From: Alphaproteobacteria bacterium | GTDB taxonomy: Bacteria; Pseudomonadota; Alphaproteobacteria; UBA7887 | Assembly (NCBI GenBank): GCA_965216755.1 | Contig: CBDCGL010000011.1 | Coordinates: forward strand, 3,552,001-3,616,000 | Length of the DNA stretch: 64,000 nt | Direction: 5' to 3' | Part shown: positions 397 to 64,000 of the stretch, piece after piece | Layout: each line of letters begins with the position of its first letter | Position numbering within the stretch: the stretch's first letter is position 1 | Made by a program: the position numbers and the translations under genes | The notes under the pieces: model-generated | Told to the model about the DNA's origin: nothing | What the model saw: the letters and a program-made list of their open reading frames with translations, nothing else | Database searches by the model: none

Positions 397-1419
397 ATGG
401 CAACTGCCTCGACGCGACTCACTGCCGTTGTTCCCTGCTATAATGCCGAGCGCTATCTGGCCGATGCGCTCAACTCTGTTTTTGCGCAATCCCTGCGCCC
501 CACGCAGGTGATCGTCGTCGACGACTGTTCAACCGATGCATCGCTAAGTATTGCTAGAAAATATCCGGTGGAGATCTTGCGGACGGTGCACAATGTGGGC
601 CCAGCGGCGGCCATGAATCTTGGTGCGCAGCACGCCAAGAACGATTGGCTCGCGTGGTTGGCAGCTGACGACACCTGGGACCACAATCATTGTCAAACAG
701 TGTCTCAACTCTTGGATCAGCATTCGGACGCGTGCGTGGCGTTTTCTGCCGTGCGGTTCGGGGGCAACAAATCCGGAACGTGGGGGCCCCGCCTACCGGC
801 GGGTGTGGCGGTTGAAGCCTTTTGGGATTGCTTGCGCGAGACGGTGGTGCCGGGGATCACAGCCATCGTCCGTCGCGATGCCCACCATGCCATTGGCGGC
901 TTCGACGAACAAATCCGCTTCGCCTCGGATTTCGATTTCTGGTTACGCTTGGCGCAGCACGGTCGGTTCGTCTGCACCCATGCCGTCACCGCCACGTATC
1001 GTTGGCACGAGCAACAAATCAGCCAAAAACCGCGACGGCAATGGCACTCCGTCTACTTGACCCGCTATCGGCTGTGGCGCAATGCTTTGGATGTGGGCGA
1101 CAAAGAATTCGCAGCGCGCATCGAAACGGTCATGCACGATGCCTGGGAACATGATCTCGGGTGGGCTTGGGATCAACACGCCATGGCCGATTTGCGCTAT
1201 TTGCTGTCGATGCGCATGTTGATGCCGCCTGCGCATCGTATCTTGTGGCTATGGGTGTTGCGTGGGATGGCGCCGACCCCCATGAGATCGGCGTGGTCTT
1301 TGATCCCGCAGCGCACGCGCGCGCGCCTGGTGCCCGGCTGGCTCGCGCGGCGCACGCCGGCATCGGACGGGCATCATCTTGATGGGCGACAAAAGATTTT
1401 CCGGTCACAAACATCGTAA
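397..1419 (+). CDS. Glycosyltransferase family 2 (GT-A fold)
   Basis: VVPCYNAERYL...VIVVDDCSTD N-terminus, ADD (DxD-like) motif, GGFDE...SDFDFWLR. Confidence 0.9.
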   Translation: MATASTRLTAVVPCYNAERYLADALNSVFAQSLRPTQVIVVDDCSTDASLSIARKYPVEILRTVHNVGPAAAMNLGAQHAKNDWLAWLAADDTWDHNHCQTVSQLLDQHSDACVAFSAVRFGGNKSGTWGPRLPAGVAVEAFWDCLRETVVPGITAIVRRDAHHAIGGFDEQIRFASDFDFWLRLAQHGRFVCTHAVTATYRWHEQQISQKPRRQWHSVYLTRYRLWRNALDVGDKEFAARIETVMHDAWEHDLGWAWDQHAMADLRYLLSMRMLMPPAHRILWLWVLRGMAPTPMRSAWSLIPQRTRARLVPGWLARRTPASDGHHLDGRQKIFRSQTS

Positions 1420-1516
1420 GGGATCGCCAACCCGCGACGACGTCGCCCGGTTGCGGTGCGTCCCATGAAACGATTGACTGAAAGGCCGCGCGAATCGAAC
1501 GCTCCGGCAGGGCGGT

Positions 1517-2203
1517 TCAATATTGTCGGACAATGCTCTCGGCGTTTCGGGAGCGCGTTGCTTCGGTCAGTTGATCCAGCAGATCAACGACGTCTCGCGA
1601 TGCCTTCTCCATTTGTTCAAATTCCGTCCGCGCTTTGTCGCGGTCGTCAGATTTGTGGTGCCGCGCCGAAGCCTTACCATGGGAATACACACGACTATGG
1701 GGGTCAGCCAATTCTTCCTCTTTCAGACTGTTTAAGCCAACCAACATTTCGGCAAGAGTCTTCTTCCACAGGAAATGATCCGACTTTGCCCTATGCTGAA
1801 CGTAATTTCGGATCGCAGGCTTCTCCAGGTTCAAAAACTGTTCATTGACCAACGATTCGGATTGACCGACCGCTTCGATCGTTTGTGCGACGTTGTTTTT
1901 GGTTCGTGCCGCGATCGTTCCGACGATAGCCAGACCTTTCGATATTTCCTTTGTCGCTTGGGTTTGCTCGGAAACCGAAGCGTTAAACTCAAGCGAGCGC
2001 TGTGCGCTGGACTGAACGCTATTCCCGATGACACGGAATTCATTGCCAACCGCGTCGATAAGCGCCCGACCTTTGTCAACCGTCGTTGCACACTCCTCCA
2101 TTGCGGCTTCAAACTCCGACATCTCAATTTGCGGCGAGCGGATTTTCTGTCGAATGTCGTCGGATGCCGCGTGTGTTTGGCCGGCGAGGCCCTTGACCTC
2201 GGC
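1517..2203 (-). pseudogene. Truncated methyl-accepting chemotaxis protein: end of signalling domain plus internally deleted CZB domain
   Basis: Similarity starts abruptly at AEVKGLAGQT, followed by SVSEQTQATKEIS and CZB-like AKSDHFLWKK...PHSRVYSHGK; no sensor/HAMP region or credible start. Confidence 0.75.
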
Positions 2204-59451: not shown

Positions 59452-60537
59452 TTGACCCGATCGGCGTTGGCACGCTTGCATCTGAAGGGCAAGATCGCAA
59501 GAATCCGTGGCGGGGAGACGATTACCATGCTCATTCGGGTGAATTACGGTCGCAGGCAACGTTTCCGCGCCCGCACGCGTGATCTGACCCTGCAGGGTCG
59601 TGTGAGCGATGCGGTCATGCCGTTGCGCCGCGCCGCGTGGCAGCTCAATGACGCGGCGCCGACGACGTTCTATGTTGAACCGATCGCCGATCCCGGCATT
59701 GATTGGGTCACCCAATACAAGGACTCGCCGGCCGAATTACGGTGTCGCGATCTCGGCGACTTCACCATTGAAATTCCCATTGACCATCCGGCCCTGAGGA
59801 CGCGCGACAATCGCCTGAACATAGATCTGACCGATGCCGAGGGCGCCAATATTGTTGAGTCGGTTCAGTTCGATTTCGATCCGACTCCTGTGCCCCTGCC
59901 GCTTGATCTGACCGATCTAAGTACGGTCTACGATATTCAAGAGATTGGCCAAACCGTGGTCGGTGCCTTCGATGTTGATCGTGCGCAAAACGTCATTCGG
60001 TCGCGGGCGCCGGTGTACCCGGACTCGCTTTTGGTGTTGGGCGCGCCGCACGCCGATCAGGAGGCGACATACAATGTGCGGTTTTTGGATTTCCGTGGCG
60101 TTAAATGGCTCGGCCCAAGTGATTTCTACGTCGGTTTTGAGGACAAGTCACCGCCGATCGGCATCAAGACAGGGTGGTCAAGCGCCGGCATGATGGCACT
60201 CAATCCGGCCGGTGAAGCGCGTTGCTTTATCGCGTGGGGGGATCATTCGGAAACCGACCGTGAATGGGTGGTGGTCACCGACCCGCCCGAGCCGATCAGG
60301 CTCGCCAAAGATGTGTTGTATGCGGTGCGCCACCAAGTCACATTCCGCGACGGCGTCAATCGCTGCCGATTTCGCATTTGGCCCGCTGCTGGGGCTGAGC
60401 CGTCGACATGGTTGTGCACCGAAACCGATGCCGCCGTTGACCGTGCTTTGGTCCATCATTGTCGCGCCTCTTTCGGGTTGTTTCAGCATTCCGGCATGCC
60501 AATCGAGTGGTCCCATATTCGGGTGGAGGCACTGTGA
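59452..60537 (+). CDS. Hypothetical beta-rich protein (start may be 59527)
   Basis: Long ORF filling the gap; stop lies 1 nt before the next ATG; no family confidently recognised. Confidence 0.7.
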   Translation: MTRSALARLHLKGKIARIRGGETITMLIRVNYGRRQRFRARTRDLTLQGRVSDAVMPLRRAAWQLNDAAPTTFYVEPIADPGIDWVTQYKDSPAELRCRDLGDFTIEIPIDHPALRTRDNRLNIDLTDAEGANIVESVQFDFDPTPVPLPLDLTDLSTVYDIQEIGQTVVGAFDVDRAQNVIRSRAPVYPDSLLVLGAPHADQEATYNVRFLDFRGVKWLGPSDFYVGFEDKSPPIGIKTGWSSAGMMALNPAGEARCFIAWGDHSETDREWVVVTDPPEPIRLAKDVLYAVRHQVTFRDGVNRCRFRIWPAAGAEPSTWLCTETDAAVDRALVHHCRASFGLFQHSGMPIEWSHIRVEAL

Positions 60538-60538
60538 G

Positions 60539-61645
60539 ATGACAAACAATCGTCGTGGCGCGGCCCTGGGTTATCCGGCAGGCGAAGACGATCGGCGCGT
60601 CGACGGCGATATATTAGTGTCTACGATGGCCGCCATATTTGGCGCATGCGGCATGCGCGACCACGATGCCAATGCTTTGGCGCGATCGCTTGTCGCGGCG
60701 GATTTGCGCGGAATCCACAGCCATGGTGTGATGCGTGTCCCGGATTACGTCAAACGCTTGACCAGCGGTGGCGTCGATCCGCGCGGCACGCCACGTATCG
60801 CCAGCGATCGCGGCGGCGCCCTGGTTGTTGATGGCGGCAATAGCATGGGTCAGATCGCGGCATCGTTCGCCATGGCCCAAGCCATTATGCGCGCGAAGTC
60901 CGCAAATGTCGCCGTGGCCGTTGTTGGGAATAGCAACCATTGTGGTGCTATGGATCAATATGCCCTGATGGCCAGCCGGGTGAATATGATTGGTTTGGCG
61001 ACCACCAATGCCTTGCCGACCATGGCGCCTTGGGGCGGTATCGACCGTATTCTCGGGATCAACCCCTTGGCAATTGCCCTGCCGGCAGGTGAGCATCATG
61101 ACTTGGTGATCGATAGCGCGTTCAGCCCGTCGGCGCGCGGCAAGATCGAAGTGTATGGTCAAAAGGGCTTGGCGTTGCCCGACAATTGGGCCACCGATGG
61201 CGACGGTCTTCCGACCACCGATCCGGCGGCTGCCTTGGCCGGGCTGATGCGCCCGATCGGTGATTACAAAGGATCCGGTCTGGCGCTCATGATGGGGTTG
61301 TTGTCGACCATGCTTTCCGGTGCCCAGTATGGCACGGCGCTCGGCAGCTTAGAGGACGGCGCCAAGGCCGGCGCCGATGGCCATTTCTTTGCCGCCCTGA
61401 ACATTGCCGGTTTCTGCGACATTGGGCTGTTCAAGCGCCGGGTCGACGATGTTGTGCGCGAGATCCATGGCGGCCGGCGTGCCCCCGGCGCCGATCGCAT
61501 CTTTGTCCCTGGCGAACGCGAAGCCGAACTGGAGGCGCTTTACGGCACCGGCGGCATCCCCCTTAACGCGGCGACGCTTGACGGTATCAGCGAAGCCGCC
61601 GGCCAGTTCGGTGTCGACGTCGAGGCTCTGAACCTGAGCGCGTGA
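60539..61645 (+). CDS. Ldh_2 family oxidoreductase (second paralog)
   Basis: ADLRGIHSHGV, NHCGA, GINPL, YKGSGL, VPGERE. Confidence 0.9.
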   Translation: MTNNRRGAALGYPAGEDDRRVDGDILVSTMAAIFGACGMRDHDANALARSLVAADLRGIHSHGVMRVPDYVKRLTSGGVDPRGTPRIASDRGGALVVDGGNSMGQIAASFAMAQAIMRAKSANVAVAVVGNSNHCGAMDQYALMASRVNMIGLATTNALPTMAPWGGIDRILGINPLAIALPAGEHHDLVIDSAFSPSARGKIEVYGQKGLALPDNWATDGDGLPTTDPAAALAGLMRPIGDYKGSGLALMMGLLSTMLSGAQYGTALGSLEDGAKAGADGHFFAALNIAGFCDIGLFKRRVDDVVREIHGGRRAPGADRIFVPGEREAELEALYGTGGIPLNAATLDGISEAAGQFGVDVEALNLSA

Positions 61646-61730: not shown

Positions 61731-61764
61731 TAGACACAACGCATCGCGACGCAATAGTGTAACA
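61731..61764 (+). promoter_or_regulatory. Putative promoter overlapped by a Zur/Fur-like box
   Basis: TAGACA-N18-TAGTGT; cGCAATagtGTAACa (61750-61764) is an imperfect Zur-like dyad over the -10. Confidence 0.4.
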
Positions 61765-61796
61765 AATTGGCCGCGACCACCCGTTTAAGACTCCGA

Positions 61797-62276
61797 ATGG
61801 CGTTCACAGGAAAAGGCACCGATTTGATTCGTCTCCGACGCACGCGCTGGTTGGCGTGGTTGGGAATCGTCTGCCTGGTCCACGGGTGGACGCATATCGC
61901 CTTGCATGCGCTCGGCGGCGAGGGGACGGGCCACTTTGCGTGGGGCCCCGGCCATGCCGAAACGTTCGCCCACATCTCTGATGCCGCGGTCGCTCACGAT
62001 CACCATGGTTTCGCGGCCTTTGGGCATGCCGATCACCCATGCGATGGCGTCCATGCGTCAGAGCACAGCGACCATCGGCCGCAAACGCCTAGCGATCCCC
62101 ATGCCGGCGACGGCGACCAGTGTTTCTTGGCCAAACATCCGCCGACAACGCTGTGTCCTTTGCCGTCGAGCGCCGGACAGCAAGTTGCGGCGCAGGCCAC
62201 ACAGCCGGTCCCGAATGTCGTTCGGGGCGATCATCATTCGTTTGTATTCCCGATCCGCGCACCGCCAATCGCCTGA
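61797..62276 (+). CDS. His-rich DUF2946-like leader protein with C-terminal RAPP arrest motif
   Basis: Basic plus hydrophobic N-terminus, 18 His in 159 aa, ends FPIRAPPIA*. Confidence 0.75.
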   Translation: MAFTGKGTDLIRLRRTRWLAWLGIVCLVHGWTHIALHALGGEGTGHFAWGPGHAETFAHISDAAVAHDHHGFAAFGHADHPCDGVHASEHSDHRPQTPSDPHAGDGDQCFLAKHPPTTLCPLPSSAGQQVAAQATQPVPNVVRGDHHSFVFPIRAPPIA

Positions 62277-62370
62277 TCAACGCAAACGGCGCGACGGCTG
62301 AACGCCGCCATGACGGCGCTGTCACCCGCACCGCGCCTTCTATAAACATGATCAGCGAAAGGACCAACAC

Positions 62371-63822
62371 ATGGCACATGCCACGTGCTGGCGCGCCGGC
62401 ATATTGCTGGCGGCGACCATGGTGTTTGGGCACGAAGTTCATATTGCCCAAGCCCAAGACGATGCAGCGGCGCTCAAGGCCGAGGTGGAGCAAATCCGCG
62501 AAGAAATGCGGACCAGTCAAGAGGCCTATCAGTCGCAAATCGGCGACCTGATGTCGCGCATTCAACAACTCGAAGCGCAAAATGCCGCTTCTTCGCAGGC
62601 GTCAAGCACGACGCCAGGAACCTTTCAATTCGACTCGCGGGGCAGCGATGCCAGCTTCGGGATCGGTTTCAATATCGATGGTGTGGCCGGCGGCTCTTCG
62701 GCCGGCGACGAGATCCTGAAGGCGGGCGAGGTTGGGCTGCAAGGCGGCGCGCACGACCCAAACCGCAATGGTTTCACATTGCAAGCGGCCGAGCTTTCCC
62801 TTGTGGGCGTGGTGGATCCCTATTTTGACGCGCGCGCGACGGTGTTATTTCAAATCGACCAGAGCGGCGAAACAGTTCTCGAACTTGAAGAGGCGTTCGC
62901 CAAAACTCGTTTTCTGCCCGGCGGATTGCAGCTCACGGCCGGACAGTTCTATTCGCCATTCGGGCGCAAGAATTCGGTCCACGTGCACGCTCAGGATTTC
63001 GTCGACCAGCCCTTTATCATCACACGCATGTTCGGTGGTGACGGTCAGCGCCAAGTTGGCGCCAACCTGTCTTGGCTGACCCCTTTGCCGTGGTACTCCG
63101 AATTGTCCTTGGCAGTACAGAATTCGAACGGAGAAACAATGCCGAGTTTCGGTGGCGAAGACGAGGGCATTGCCGAGTTCGAGAACGTGATCGGCCAACA
63201 GCGAAATTTTTCCGACTTGGTCTACACCGGGCGTTGGTTGAACGGGTTTGACCTTTCCGACACGATCAGCGTCAACGTCGGTGCTTCGATATCGACCGGA
63301 CCAAACCGCACGGGGCCCGACAACAGAACGACCATTTTTGGTGGTGATGTGTACGCCAAATGGGTCGCGCCGAATGCGGTGCGTGGCTTCCCCTTTGTTT
63401 CGTTCGAGAGTGAAGTGATCGCGCGGCACTATGAGGCCGGCGATATCAACGACACGGGTCGCATTGATCTCGACGATTGGGGTTTTTACGCCCAAGCGCT
63501 GTACGGCTTTCAAGCCGGTTGGGTCGCGGGCCTACGCTTTGGCTACGCCGACGGCGATTCCGGCTCGGATAACTCGATCGACAACGCCACCGACCTGAAC
63601 CGTTCGTCACGTTACCGAATCTCGCCAAATATCACGTGGTACCCGACGGAGTGGAGCAAGATCCGGCTCCAGTACAACCATGATTGGTCGGAAGCTCTGC
63701 CCAGCTCAGGTCTGTCGGACGACGCCGACCCGATCACCGGCACCTATGATCGCCATACGGCCGATTCGATCTGGCTCCAACTCGGTATCGCGCTGGGCGC
63801 GCACGGTGCCCACGAATTTTGA
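62371..63822 (+). CDS. Outer-membrane beta-barrel/porin associated with metal (Zn) uptake
   Basis: Signal peptide, N-terminal coiled coil, LEEAF, N..H.H..DF, C-terminal GAHGAHEF; AAAGGA RBS. Confidence 0.8.
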   Translation: MAHATCWRAGILLAATMVFGHEVHIAQAQDDAAALKAEVEQIREEMRTSQEAYQSQIGDLMSRIQQLEAQNAASSQASSTTPGTFQFDSRGSDASFGIGFNIDGVAGGSSAGDEILKAGEVGLQGGAHDPNRNGFTLQAAELSLVGVVDPYFDARATVLFQIDQSGETVLELEEAFAKTRFLPGGLQLTAGQFYSPFGRKNSVHVHAQDFVDQPFIITRMFGGDGQRQVGANLSWLTPLPWYSELSLAVQNSNGETMPSFGGEDEGIAEFENVIGQQRNFSDLVYTGRWLNGFDLSDTISVNVGASISTGPNRTGPDNRTTIFGGDVYAKWVAPNAVRGFPFVSFESEVIARHYEAGDINDTGRIDLDDWGFYAQALYGFQAGWVAGLRFGYADGDSGSDNSIDNATDLNRSSRYRISPNITWYPTEWSKIRLQYNHDWSEALPSSGLSDDADPITGTYDRHTADSIWLQLGIALGAHGAHEF

Positions 63823-63831
63823 GGTCGTTGA

Positions 63832-64000
63832 ATGAAACCAACATTTGTGAGATGGGTGGGAGGGCTATTGGCCCTCCCCTTCTTTGCCCTGCAAACACCG
63901 GCGTATGCCGAATTTTTCATTGTGACCACGACCACCGATCTGGCGGCGATTGCCACTGAGGTTGGCGGCGATTTGGTATCGGTCAAAAGCTTGGCGCCCG
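63832..64000 (+). CDS. Metal ABC substrate-binding protein (ZnuA/TroA family), cut by the window edge
   Basis: MKPTF...PAYA signal, then IVTTTTDLAAIATEVGGDLVSVKSLAP; not in the ORF track. Confidence 0.85.
   Translation, partial: MKPTFVRWVGGLLALPFFALQTPAYAEFFIVTTTTDLAAIATEVGGDLVSVKSLAP

Follow-up and report, generated by a model that had tools for sequence, protein, structure and literature searches.

The stretch of DNA considered here (the window) is 64,000 nucleotides (nt) long and covers positions 3,552,001 to 3,616,000 of contig CBDCGL010000011.1, from an alphaproteobacterium of the UBA7887 lineage (assembly GCA_965216755.1). Near its end lies a small gene, the leader, which encodes a His-rich protein with the motif RAPP close to its C-terminus and is followed by genes of a metal-uptake type. 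Positions are those of the window, and all window features given below are on the + strand. The leader open reading frame (ORF) spans 61797..62276, with 159 codons plus stop and an ATG that agrees with the starts of its homologues, and is a candidate for a divergent arrest peptide of the DUF2946 kind. A spacer of 94 nt (62277-62370) separates its stop codon from the ATG of an outer-membrane porin (62371..63822), after which come a ZnuA-family binding protein (63832..64000, with the whole gene running past the window end to 64755 in window numbering), an ATP-binding cassette (ABC) ATPase, an ABC-3 permease and then a convergent gene. From this gene order the leader heads a five-gene operon. A sequence-only reading of the region had proposed that the leader senses a metal through its His residues and, together with Zur, gives two-tier control of the genes behind it. 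This was right in kind, as a metal-sensing arrest leader for a non-copper uptake system, and needs correction in its parts: the conserved candidate sensor residues are an HxxxH and a retained Cys, the RNA element is a helix between stop codon and Shine-Dalgarno sequence, and the Zur tier falls away.

The features which had been read from the letters of the leader are all borne out. The ORF of 159 amino acids (aa) contains 18 His and four Cys (C26, C82, C109 and C120), has no CxxC anywhere, with QCFLAKH in its place (C109-F-L-A), and ends FPIRAPPIA*, of which PIRAPPIA* had been noted. The RAPP codons CGC GCA CCG CCA (residues 154-157 of 159) are at 62256..62267, two codons before the stop. The N-terminus RLRRTRWLAWLGIVCLV, which had been called export-signal-like, has a basic n-region (RLRRTR) and then a hydrophobic stretch at residues 17-41 (hydropathy windows >1.0). 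An AlphaFold model based on a 12-sequence alignment contains a single confident helix at residues 9-41 (pLDDT up to 96), the remainder being disordered (pLDDT ~55); it includes no metal-site geometry and no folded domain past this helix. By prediction, then, the leader is membrane-targeted and has an export signal. AlphaFold and hydropathy place the codons of the putative transmembrane or signal-anchor helix at 61821..61919, and the codons of H33 and H37 (61893-61907) fall inside it, at its outer end; both residues are invariant in 12/12 aligned sequences. A His-rich insertion at residues 46-102 (61932..62102), which holds 12 of the 18 His and is modelled as disordered, is variable, being found in 6/12 aligned relatives and gapped in the other 6. 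It is followed by the conserved core C109-F-L-A-K-H114-P-P-T-T-L-C120 (62121..62156), a candidate metal site in which C109 and L111 are invariant (12/12).

Frames that end in R[AG]PP plus 1-5 residues make up 28 of the 46,010 stop-to-stop frames of >=60 aa in this genome, which means that a RAPP-type ending alone proves nothing and that the conservation of the motif is what counts. A word-seeded search of 5.8 billion proteins gave 3 matches counting the leader itself, i.e. two relatives, and a HMMER profile search of 1.84 billion representatives (E <= 0.001) gave 11 proteins, the window's own included. Every one of the 11 has R[AG]PP at its end, with two residues after it (three in one protein), and because of this the leader ORF is to be seen as a real, conserved gene. 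Invariant in the 12-sequence alignment are L27, H33, H37, C109, L111, R154, P156 and P157, so that the R and both P of the motif are the same in 12/12. The stretch from C109 to R154, with a spacing of 44 residues, is essentially ungapped in all of them, and the C109 site has a single Cys in 11/12, L002 alone having CLLC. Of 401 genomes of the class searched in six frames with the profile, 5 contain the leader family, this one included, while a narrower leader alignment used as query recovered only the P0002 locus from metagenomes and the L001 contig from genomes.

The genes downstream of these relatives are of a similar kind. L022 has the same porin as the window and L027 a receptor-like protein; the L023 leader precedes a porin and has znuC- and znuB-like genes just upstream (246 and 271 bits, best matches, below the equivalog cut-offs), and the L024 leader precedes a TonB-dependent receptor whose best match is ZnuD (128 bits vs a cut-off of 950). 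The genome itself contains a second leader of 102 residues, ending RVRIRAPPHI* (contig C11:1096501-1096767 (-), or L026 1495-1803 (-)), and right after it come a ZrgA-family gene (PF10986, E = 6e-50) and a DUF3299 gene. It is worth noting that RDPP replaces RAPP in three alphaproteobacterial relatives, L022 446-781 (-), L025 424-789 (-) and L027 1353-1583 (-). These endings are natural cases of a motif reported only as a mutant of ApdA/ApdP, where RDPP was partially permissive for arrest, and as depleted from proteomes (PMC12992588). L025 also has a second leader-like ORF (1276-1617 (-); MWLTVFLLGLAHGWLH...GHFAHNDGQCCLVQ...) upstream of its intact leader and without an RxPP end, which may be a decayed duplicate.

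The porin provides a second and wider sample. Among species-representative genomes 372 loci encode a relative of it, and the best 80 of these were taken, of which 6 are without upstream DNA and 74 are assessable. A same-strand upstream ORF ending in [RH][AGS]PP plus 1-5 residues is present in 58/74, in many phyla, and the endings are 44 RAPP, 11 RGPP, 2 HSPP and 1 RSPP. By eye, 8 of the other 16 have RAPP, RGPP or RPPP with tails of 6-12 residues, and 8 show nothing. The sequence-only reading had expected homologous and syntenic upstream ORFs to keep a terminal RAPP or RGPP, and this is what both samples contain (11/11 library proteins and 58/74 porin loci). A ZnuA-like gene is present in 73/80 porin loci. 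In 400 other genomes of the phylum sample the porin had 0 matches at E <= 1e-30, and 5/22 other genomes of the order had a match.

As for the proteins themselves, the barrel ending GAHGAHEF and the ZnuA-family protein which had been named as the next two genes have both held up. The porin (483 aa) combines an N-terminal coiled coil with a 16-strand barrel, and scores 27.4 bits against Pfam BBP2 (cut-off 26.2). Its AlphaFold model (pLDDT 71.7, pTM 0.67) has a long N-terminal helix and 16 strands, and the best Foldseek matches are OprO 4rjw (E = 9e-14), OprP 2o4v and DcaP 6eus. What it shares with these is the 16-strand barrel (Foldseek probability 1.0, TM-score 0.5-0.7), and what sets it apart is a sequence identity of 12-14%, its invariant His and its place in operons with ZnuA-type importers. 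DcaP reportedly has an N-terminal coiled coil as well. Across 15 porin homologues the invariant His are H128 (GAHDPN), H204 and H206 (HxH before DFVDQP) and H478 and H481 (the GxHxAHxF terminus), which from their conservation are candidate metal-handling residues of the pore. The binding protein matches PF01297 over its full 307 aa (E = 9e-51). The ATPase is unusually short (192 aa; 64772-65350 in window numbering, beyond the window), and the permease (65347-66150, likewise beyond; the two genes together are L014 3772-5147) has a weak ABC-3 match (E = 1e-9) and matches none of the NCBIfam models. The importer as a whole is of the ZnuBC type, but divergent.

Leaders of this general design are known from copper genes. 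CruR (Bp2923) of Bordetella pertussis is the prototype of DUF2946/PF11162, and Roy et al. 2022 (PMC9426467) describe that its regulation needs a spacing of 45 residues and that its arrest shields the spacer from Rho. Toeprinting of CruR placed the RAPP Pro codons in the P and A sites in an in vitro arrest (PMC12992588). In the case of CutF from Rhodobacter capsulatus, the cutO Shine-Dalgarno sequence is shielded by a stem-loop, which the stalled ribosome opens (Ozturk et al. 2023, PMC9973294). The same paper sorts CutF-like proteins into 29 clusters, whose sites are Cys, His or a mixture of both; two clusters with His alone are found beside HupE/UreJ, and its authors conclude that nickel or cobalt may be what some of them sense. 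Among the genes that follow RAPP/RGPP small proteins, Fujiwara et al. 2025 (PMC12992588) list metal genes. The sequence-only reading had stated that no description of the present configuration was known. No published account of the porin-ZnuA or zinc configuration of such leaders was found, supplements aside, and to that extent the statement stands: the main texts of PMC12992588 and PMC9973294 contain the words 'zinc' and 'porin' 0 times, and that of PMC9426467 has 'zinc' 0 times, porin not having been searched there. It does not stand for His-only sites and non-copper metals in general, which were already reported for the CutF-like clusters (PMC9973294).

The leader can be connected to this family through intermediates. 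The gathering score of PF11162 is 23.7 bits, and no match was found in the P0002, P0003 and L001 leaders, while L002 reaches 19.5 bits and L007 E = 0.17, both of these being CxxC leaders before more distant porin homologues; no protein anywhere in this genome is over the cut-off. When the leader family was compared with 26 leaders of other porin loci by hhalign, the two aligned over their full length with 98.1% probability (E = 8e-14), and 20/26 of those porin leaders match PF11162 at E <= 1 (best 5e-6). The 58 porin-locus leaders comprise 42 with CxxC and 16 with a single Cys. In 32/42 of the former the first Cys is 47 residues before the Arg, and the second Cys thus at 44; in the latter the Cys is at 44 in 11/16, with a further Cys at 33 in 6 of these 11. 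C109 (44) and C120 (33) of the window are an exact fit to this C-x10-C form of the single-Cys variant. Since C109 has the position of the second CxxC Cys, the leader has to be regarded as a degenerate CxxC variant and not as purely His-based. Of the characters by which DUF2946 leaders are recognised, it has RAPP near the stop, the spacing of ~45 residues from Cys to RAPP (44 here), a predicted export signal and the first place in an operon before a long spacer, and it lacks the profile score and the CxxC. The gene content downstream, a porin and a ZnuA/ABC/ABC-3 importer, differs from a copper-homeostasis operon. As in RAPP-type arrest peptides generally, RAPP or RGPP stands near the C-terminus of a small membrane or secretory protein upstream of a candidate target gene. 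From these sequence comparisons the leader is assigned to a divergent, single-Cys, His-rich branch of the DUF2946 (CruR/CutF) leaders, linked indirectly by profile comparison.

A closer comparison with CruR gives the same picture of likeness with differences. Both are first genes of metal-uptake operons, with an export signal (predicted here), a Cys ~45 residues before a C-terminal RAPP that is 2-3 residues from the stop, and a long structured spacer, and the polarity to be expected is also the same, metal releasing the arrest and turning uptake off. Unlike CruR, the leader has no PF11162 match and no CxxC, keeping the second Cys position plus C120, and it adds the invariant HxxxH at the end of the membrane helix and the His-rich insertion. 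The cargo of CruR is a TonB-dependent receptor and a PepSY protein, whereas here it is a porin and a ZnuA-type ABC importer; and the CruR spacer has 162 nt, while the spacer here has 94 nt and a helix between stop codon and next Shine-Dalgarno sequence. With CutF the leader shares the exported (again by prediction), DUF2946-like nature, a metal motif that in CutF is 45 residues from the Pro-rich stalling end, and an mRNA helix near the Shine-Dalgarno sequence. In contrast to CutF, the anti-Shine-Dalgarno arm here consists of the leader's own last codons and stop codon.

In the RNA, the minimum-free-energy (MFE) fold connects the end of the leader with the start of the porin. The 5' arm of this basal helix (UCGCCUGAUCA, 62269..62279) comprises the last two sense codons, the stop codon and 3 nt beyond, and the 3' arm (UGAUCAGCGA, 62349..62358) ends where the porin Shine-Dalgarno-like AAGGA begins (62359..62363, read from the sequence, 7 nt before the ATG). 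The duplex energy is -15.4 kcal/mol, matched by 1/300 shuffles. In the same fold the GGA of the Shine-Dalgarno sequence pairs weakly with UCC of the Phe-Pro codons (62248-62250), and a central G+C-rich nested hairpin (62288..62337) stands between the arms; similar hairpins fold in L001, L002 and L007. This hairpin, with helices 62288-62293/62332-62337 and 62303-62307/62314-62318, was what the sequence-only reading had picked out in the spacer. Both helices are indeed in the MFE fold, but the RNA element best supported by comparison is the basal helix from stop codon to Shine-Dalgarno sequence, and not the nested hairpin.

The comparative evidence is as follows. Folds of leader tail, spacer and porin start from the window, L001 and L002 all have a long-range helix from the last codons and stop to a segment 5' of, or overlapping, the next Shine-Dalgarno sequence. 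Over eleven loci the layout of the helix is the same and the sequences of the arms differ, UGAUCA/UGAUCA and UGAGUU/AACUCA among them: the window has CCUGAUCA/UGAUCAG, L023 CCUGAGUU/AACUCAGG, L024 UCUUCUGAUU/AAUCAGGAGA and L028 UGAUCG/CGAUCA, and in the paralogue from the same genome a perfect 10-bp helix, CAUCUGAUUG/CAAUCAGAUG, joins the stop codon to the ZrgA ribosome-binding region. A duplex test was made by pairing 22 nt around the leader stop with 27 nt before the next start and comparing the energy with shuffles. In 11/11 loci at most 7 of 300 shuffles were as good, and the mean energy was -18.1 kcal/mol for cognate vs -12.2 kcal/mol for non-cognate arms (Mann-Whitney p = 3e-5). A set of 54 further porin loci (one locus without a start codon found and one with a 17-nt spacer were dropped) contains 32 that reach <=10 of 200 shuffles, with means of -14.5 vs -8.8 kcal/mol. 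The stop codon is inside the best duplex in 61/64 loci, and flanking positions have several pair types. Accessibility was modelled with a ribosome that has the first Pro codon in the P site and covers 15 nt downstream. This footprint raises the unpaired probability of the Shine-Dalgarno region in 11/11 loci; in the window, where such a comparison of free and occupied spacer had been suggested beforehand, the value for the -16..-5 region goes from 0.26 to 0.57. A helix that shields the next ribosome-binding site and is in reach of a stalled ribosome, as in CutF, is therefore found across the family in these models.

In porin loci from gammaproteobacteria (L039-L044, L057, L077 and others) the leaders are of the CxxC type, HVALHD...ECQ[IV]CRLNHVP...WARAPPLF, and between CxxC and RAPP the chain becomes hydrophobic for a second time. 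The codons at their ends, CCC CUG UUC UGA, form a duplex of up to 13 bp with AUCAGAACAGGAG, a segment that holds the porin Shine-Dalgarno sequence.

By analogy with CruR and CutF, the leader most likely switches the operon of porin and zinc-type importer in the way these do, for a different metal. Computation shows the reality of the gene, the conservation of motif and spacing, the synteny with zinc-type uptake genes and the conserved helix, and conservation and synteny bear out the earlier view of the leader as the RAPP-ended, membrane-targeted head of a porin-ZnuA-ABC operon. The arrest, the identity of the metal and the polarity, in which metal releases the arrest as in CruR, we infer from the characterised relatives. 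The explanation that we favour, and consider reasonably probable, is that the leader acts in cis, that RAPP arrest opens the porin ribosome-binding site, and that a metal, likeliest Zn2+, releases the arrest and shuts the operon.

In this mechanism the N-terminal helix would bring the nascent chain to the inner membrane, and translation would arrest at R154-A-P-P157, the first Pro codon (62262-62264) standing in the P site and the second in the A site. Stalled ribosomes have a well-established reach along the mRNA channel, and from it the arrested ribosome should cover the message to about 62277-62279 and with it all of the 5' arm of the basal helix. This helix would otherwise tie the last codons and stop of the leader to RNA abutting the porin Shine-Dalgarno sequence, and arrest would free the ribosome-binding site. 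The reach of the ribosome over the 5' arm would also be a simple reason why RxPP is 2-3 codons from the stop throughout the family. Arrest probably also keeps Rho off the C-rich spacer, and the porin and the ZnuA/ABC importer would be made. Metal, likeliest Zn2+, may be bound in the periplasm by H33/H37 and C109/H114/C120, together with the His-rich loop in this lineage, and binding would pull or fold the nascent chain and so release the arrest; the ribosome would then terminate, the helix re-form and the uptake operon be turned off. The 44-residue spacing would place C109 just past the exit tunnel, in or near the translocon, during arrest, following an argument made for CutF (PMC9973294). It is the uptake cargo for which the polarity of CruR is taken, with metal releasing the arrest.

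A number of results weigh against this explanation. On the side of the family assignment, a Pfam scan of the leader gave no match at E <= 1, PF11162 included, and the match to CopL_fam is weak (E = 0.45). In the RNA, the fold of the whole 146 nt is unexceptional (z = -1.58), and the basal helix of the window abuts the Shine-Dalgarno sequence and does not cover it, only GGA being weakly paired. Non-cognate arms pair fairly well because Pro-Pro codons (CCNCC) complement Shine-Dalgarno sequences generally, 22/54 further porin loci fail the duplex test, and the table of pair types leans towards pairing since it is anchored on the best duplex of each locus. RNAalifold on a MAFFT alignment of nine spacers returned 0 pairs, as the arms are out of register in that alignment. 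In the free state the Shine-Dalgarno sequence is less exposed than in shuffled controls in only 8/11 loci. On the side of the metal, the genome already has a canonical, Zur-boxed znuA-znuCB locus; NCBIfam equivalog cut-offs are not reached for AztC (101 vs 350 bits), ZrgA (167 vs 185) or ZnuD (128 vs 950); the ZnuA family includes Mn and Fe binders too; and Cys/His sites suit copper, the metal of the characterised relatives, as well.

These last points lead to the question of which metal is involved. The same arrest mechanism might serve copper, as in CruR and CutF, or nickel, cobalt or manganese. We consider this unlikely. In its favour, the characterised relatives sense copper, the His-only CutF-like clusters beside HupE/UreJ suggest nickel or cobalt (PMC9973294), and there are Mn and Fe binders within the ZnuA family and no Zur box at the leader. 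On the other hand, the closest solved relatives of the binding protein are zinc proteins, Synechocystis ZnuA 2ov1/1pq4 (E = 7e-19). Its His align at three positions, which we take to be the zinc ligands of that protein; with this ligand role, the binding protein combines the PF01297 fold with the three His ligand positions of a ZnuA type, and it has His, not Glu or Asp, at the third. In addition, the paralogous leader is linked to ZrgA, relatives are linked to ZnuC-/ZnuB-like and ZnuD-like genes, and one porin homologue has been named 'zinc-regulated TonB-dependent outer membrane receptor' by NCBI. Because of the His positions of the binding protein, the paralogue before ZrgA, the ZnuD-, ZnuC- and ZnuB-like genes at the loci of relatives and the ZnuA-like gene in most porin loci, zinc appears to be the likeliest metal of the leader operon. 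The proposal of a His-based sensor for Zn, Ni or Co therefore fares unevenly: the non-copper uptake context and the invariant H33/H37 agree with it, and the presence of the His-rich run in only 6/12 relatives and the retained C109 do not.

The canonical zinc locus of this genome (contig C11:1637669-1641159) has its znuA and a divergent znuC-znuB, followed by a Fur-family-like gene, and between them lies the only near-perfect Zur box of the genome, TAATGTTATTATATAACGTT at 1638681 (1 mismatch). The motif, a palindrome of the GTTA-N5-TAAC type, was taken from PMC4176598. With two znuA-type loci and a Zur box at one of them, the two ZnuA-type systems of the organism appear to be controlled differently. 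Upstream of the leader the best match, CGCAATAGTGTAACA at 61750, has 4/12 mismatches to TGTTAT-N3-ATAACA; matches of this kind occur at ~1e-3 per position genome-wide, so ~0.16 are expected by chance in the 160-nt region. The region before the paralogous leader does worse, with 6 mismatches in its best match. The Zur-like dyad that had been seen to overlap the predicted -10 is thus not supported, and neither is the Zur half of the two-tier control. The consensus scan gives one promoter-like pair of hexamers before the leader, TAGACA-16 nt-AATAGT (61731..61758; 1 site vs 0.2 expected in shuffles), which is not evidence of function. In the spacer (62277-62370) the scan found neither a promoter-like nor a terminator-like site, in line with the earlier view that the porin has no independent promoter there.

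A second alternative accepts the arrest and gives the helix no direct role in initiation. In such a pure CruR-type attenuation, arrest would only block the loading of Rho, and release would lead to Rho termination. This mechanism has been shown for CruR, which itself heads an uptake operon (PMC9426467), and the spacer here is suitably C-rich and G-poor (C/G ratio 1.6 over 62260-62339), with no intrinsic terminator-like site found. It leaves unexplained, however, the pairing of the leader end in 11/11 close and 32/54 distant loci, with arms that differ, and the spacer is 94 nt as opposed to 162 nt in CruR. As a complete account we hold it to be decidedly improbable. Rho attenuation and the helix switch are compatible, and not mutually exclusive.

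Two further alternatives have much less to recommend them. One is that the polarity is that of CutF, with metal prolonging the arrest, high metal inducing the operon and the porin-ABC system serving something other than scavenging. CutF does behave in this way, with the same stem-loop logic (PMC9973294). There, the gene induced at high copper by the prolonged stall is a detoxifying oxidase (PMC9973294; bioRxiv 10.1101/2025.02.05.636593), while the uptake cargo of the leader would call for the opposite polarity. With an importer-type binding protein, an ABC-3 permease and a porin downstream, induction by excess metal would be maladaptive, and the paralogue precedes ZrgA, which belongs to an uptake protein family; we see this polarity as very unlikely. 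Hardly more credible is the idea that the leader is a working His-rich metal-binding protein, a zinc store or chaperone for the porin-ZnuA route, with RAPP at most a pause and the helix an expression of ordinary coupling. The 18 His in 159 residues, the predicted export signal and the shared operon with uptake genes would suit such a protein. The His-rich part, however, is missing in 6/12 relatives, yet RxPP is invariant, as are the Cys spacing and how far the motif lies from the stop, and the model has no folded domain beyond the helix. RAPP and RGPP are described as strongly avoided in proteomes save in arrest peptides (PMC12992588), and mature CruR and CutF were not detected in vivo in the respective studies (PMC9426467, PMC9973294).

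A monitor of Sec/YidC activity was considered as well. With ApdA, ApdP and SecM the leader shares a C-terminal RAPP/RGPP/RDPP in a small membrane or secretory protein upstream of a regulated gene, and a Pro-Pro arrest in the P and A sites would be expected in both (PMC12992588); those peptides monitor Sec/YidC activity and precede sec or yidC genes, whereas the leader has a metal-transport cargo and conserved His and Cys in its chain, and SecM-like monitoring is ruled out as no sec or yidC gene lies downstream. Zur control of the leader operon is likewise rejected, on the mismatches given above and the clear box at the canonical znu locus. A promoter motif shared by the two leaders of this genome finds no support either, since by eye they have only an 8-mer and GTAACA in common, about chance level.

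If the favoured mechanism, a cis-acting arrest leader released by zinc, is correct, the consequences reach beyond this operon. All characterised members of the leader class sense copper, and zinc uptake is a textbook case of transcription controlled by Zur; an arrest peptide that responds to zinc would give zinc homeostasis a further layer, one which is fast, acts after transcription and senses the periplasm. The series of leaders with CxxC, with a single Cys and with Cys-His-Cys plus His loop is a natural set for asking how a metal site determines specificity and releases RAPP arrest. A likely role, zinc entry, is also suggested for a widespread and uncharacterised porin family (at least 1930 clusters, 372 loci), and the compact design is well suited to reporter work because the stop-codon arm pairs with the next ribosome-binding region. 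In its widest form the proposal is that in many Gram-negative phyla a zinc sensor in the nascent chain, and not Zur, is the main control of two-membrane zinc import by a dedicated His-bearing porin and a ZnuA-type ABC importer, that arrest motif and RNA switch are the same nucleotides, and that in the lineage of the window the metal site is being rebuilt from CxxC to Cys-His-Cys plus a His-rich loop. The Pro-Pro and terminal codons and the stop would then make up the anti-Shine-Dalgarno arm, which would explain why RxPP always stands 2-3 codons before the stop; arrest peptides would be able to evolve their metal specificity, and the leader would be the first post-transcriptional periplasmic zinc sensor. 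We put this forward tentatively, as something that may be so and is more easily doubted than the mechanism at the single locus.

Two smaller observations concern the surroundings of such leaders. In Caulobacter, a DUF2946 gene is listed, and not analysed further, at the head of a Zur-activated zinc-efflux operon (PMC4176598). In the window, the gene upstream of the leader (60212-61645) belongs to the malate/L-lactate dehydrogenase family (Ldh_2, E = 2.5e-106) and has no relation to metal transport; 151 nt separate its end from the start of the leader.

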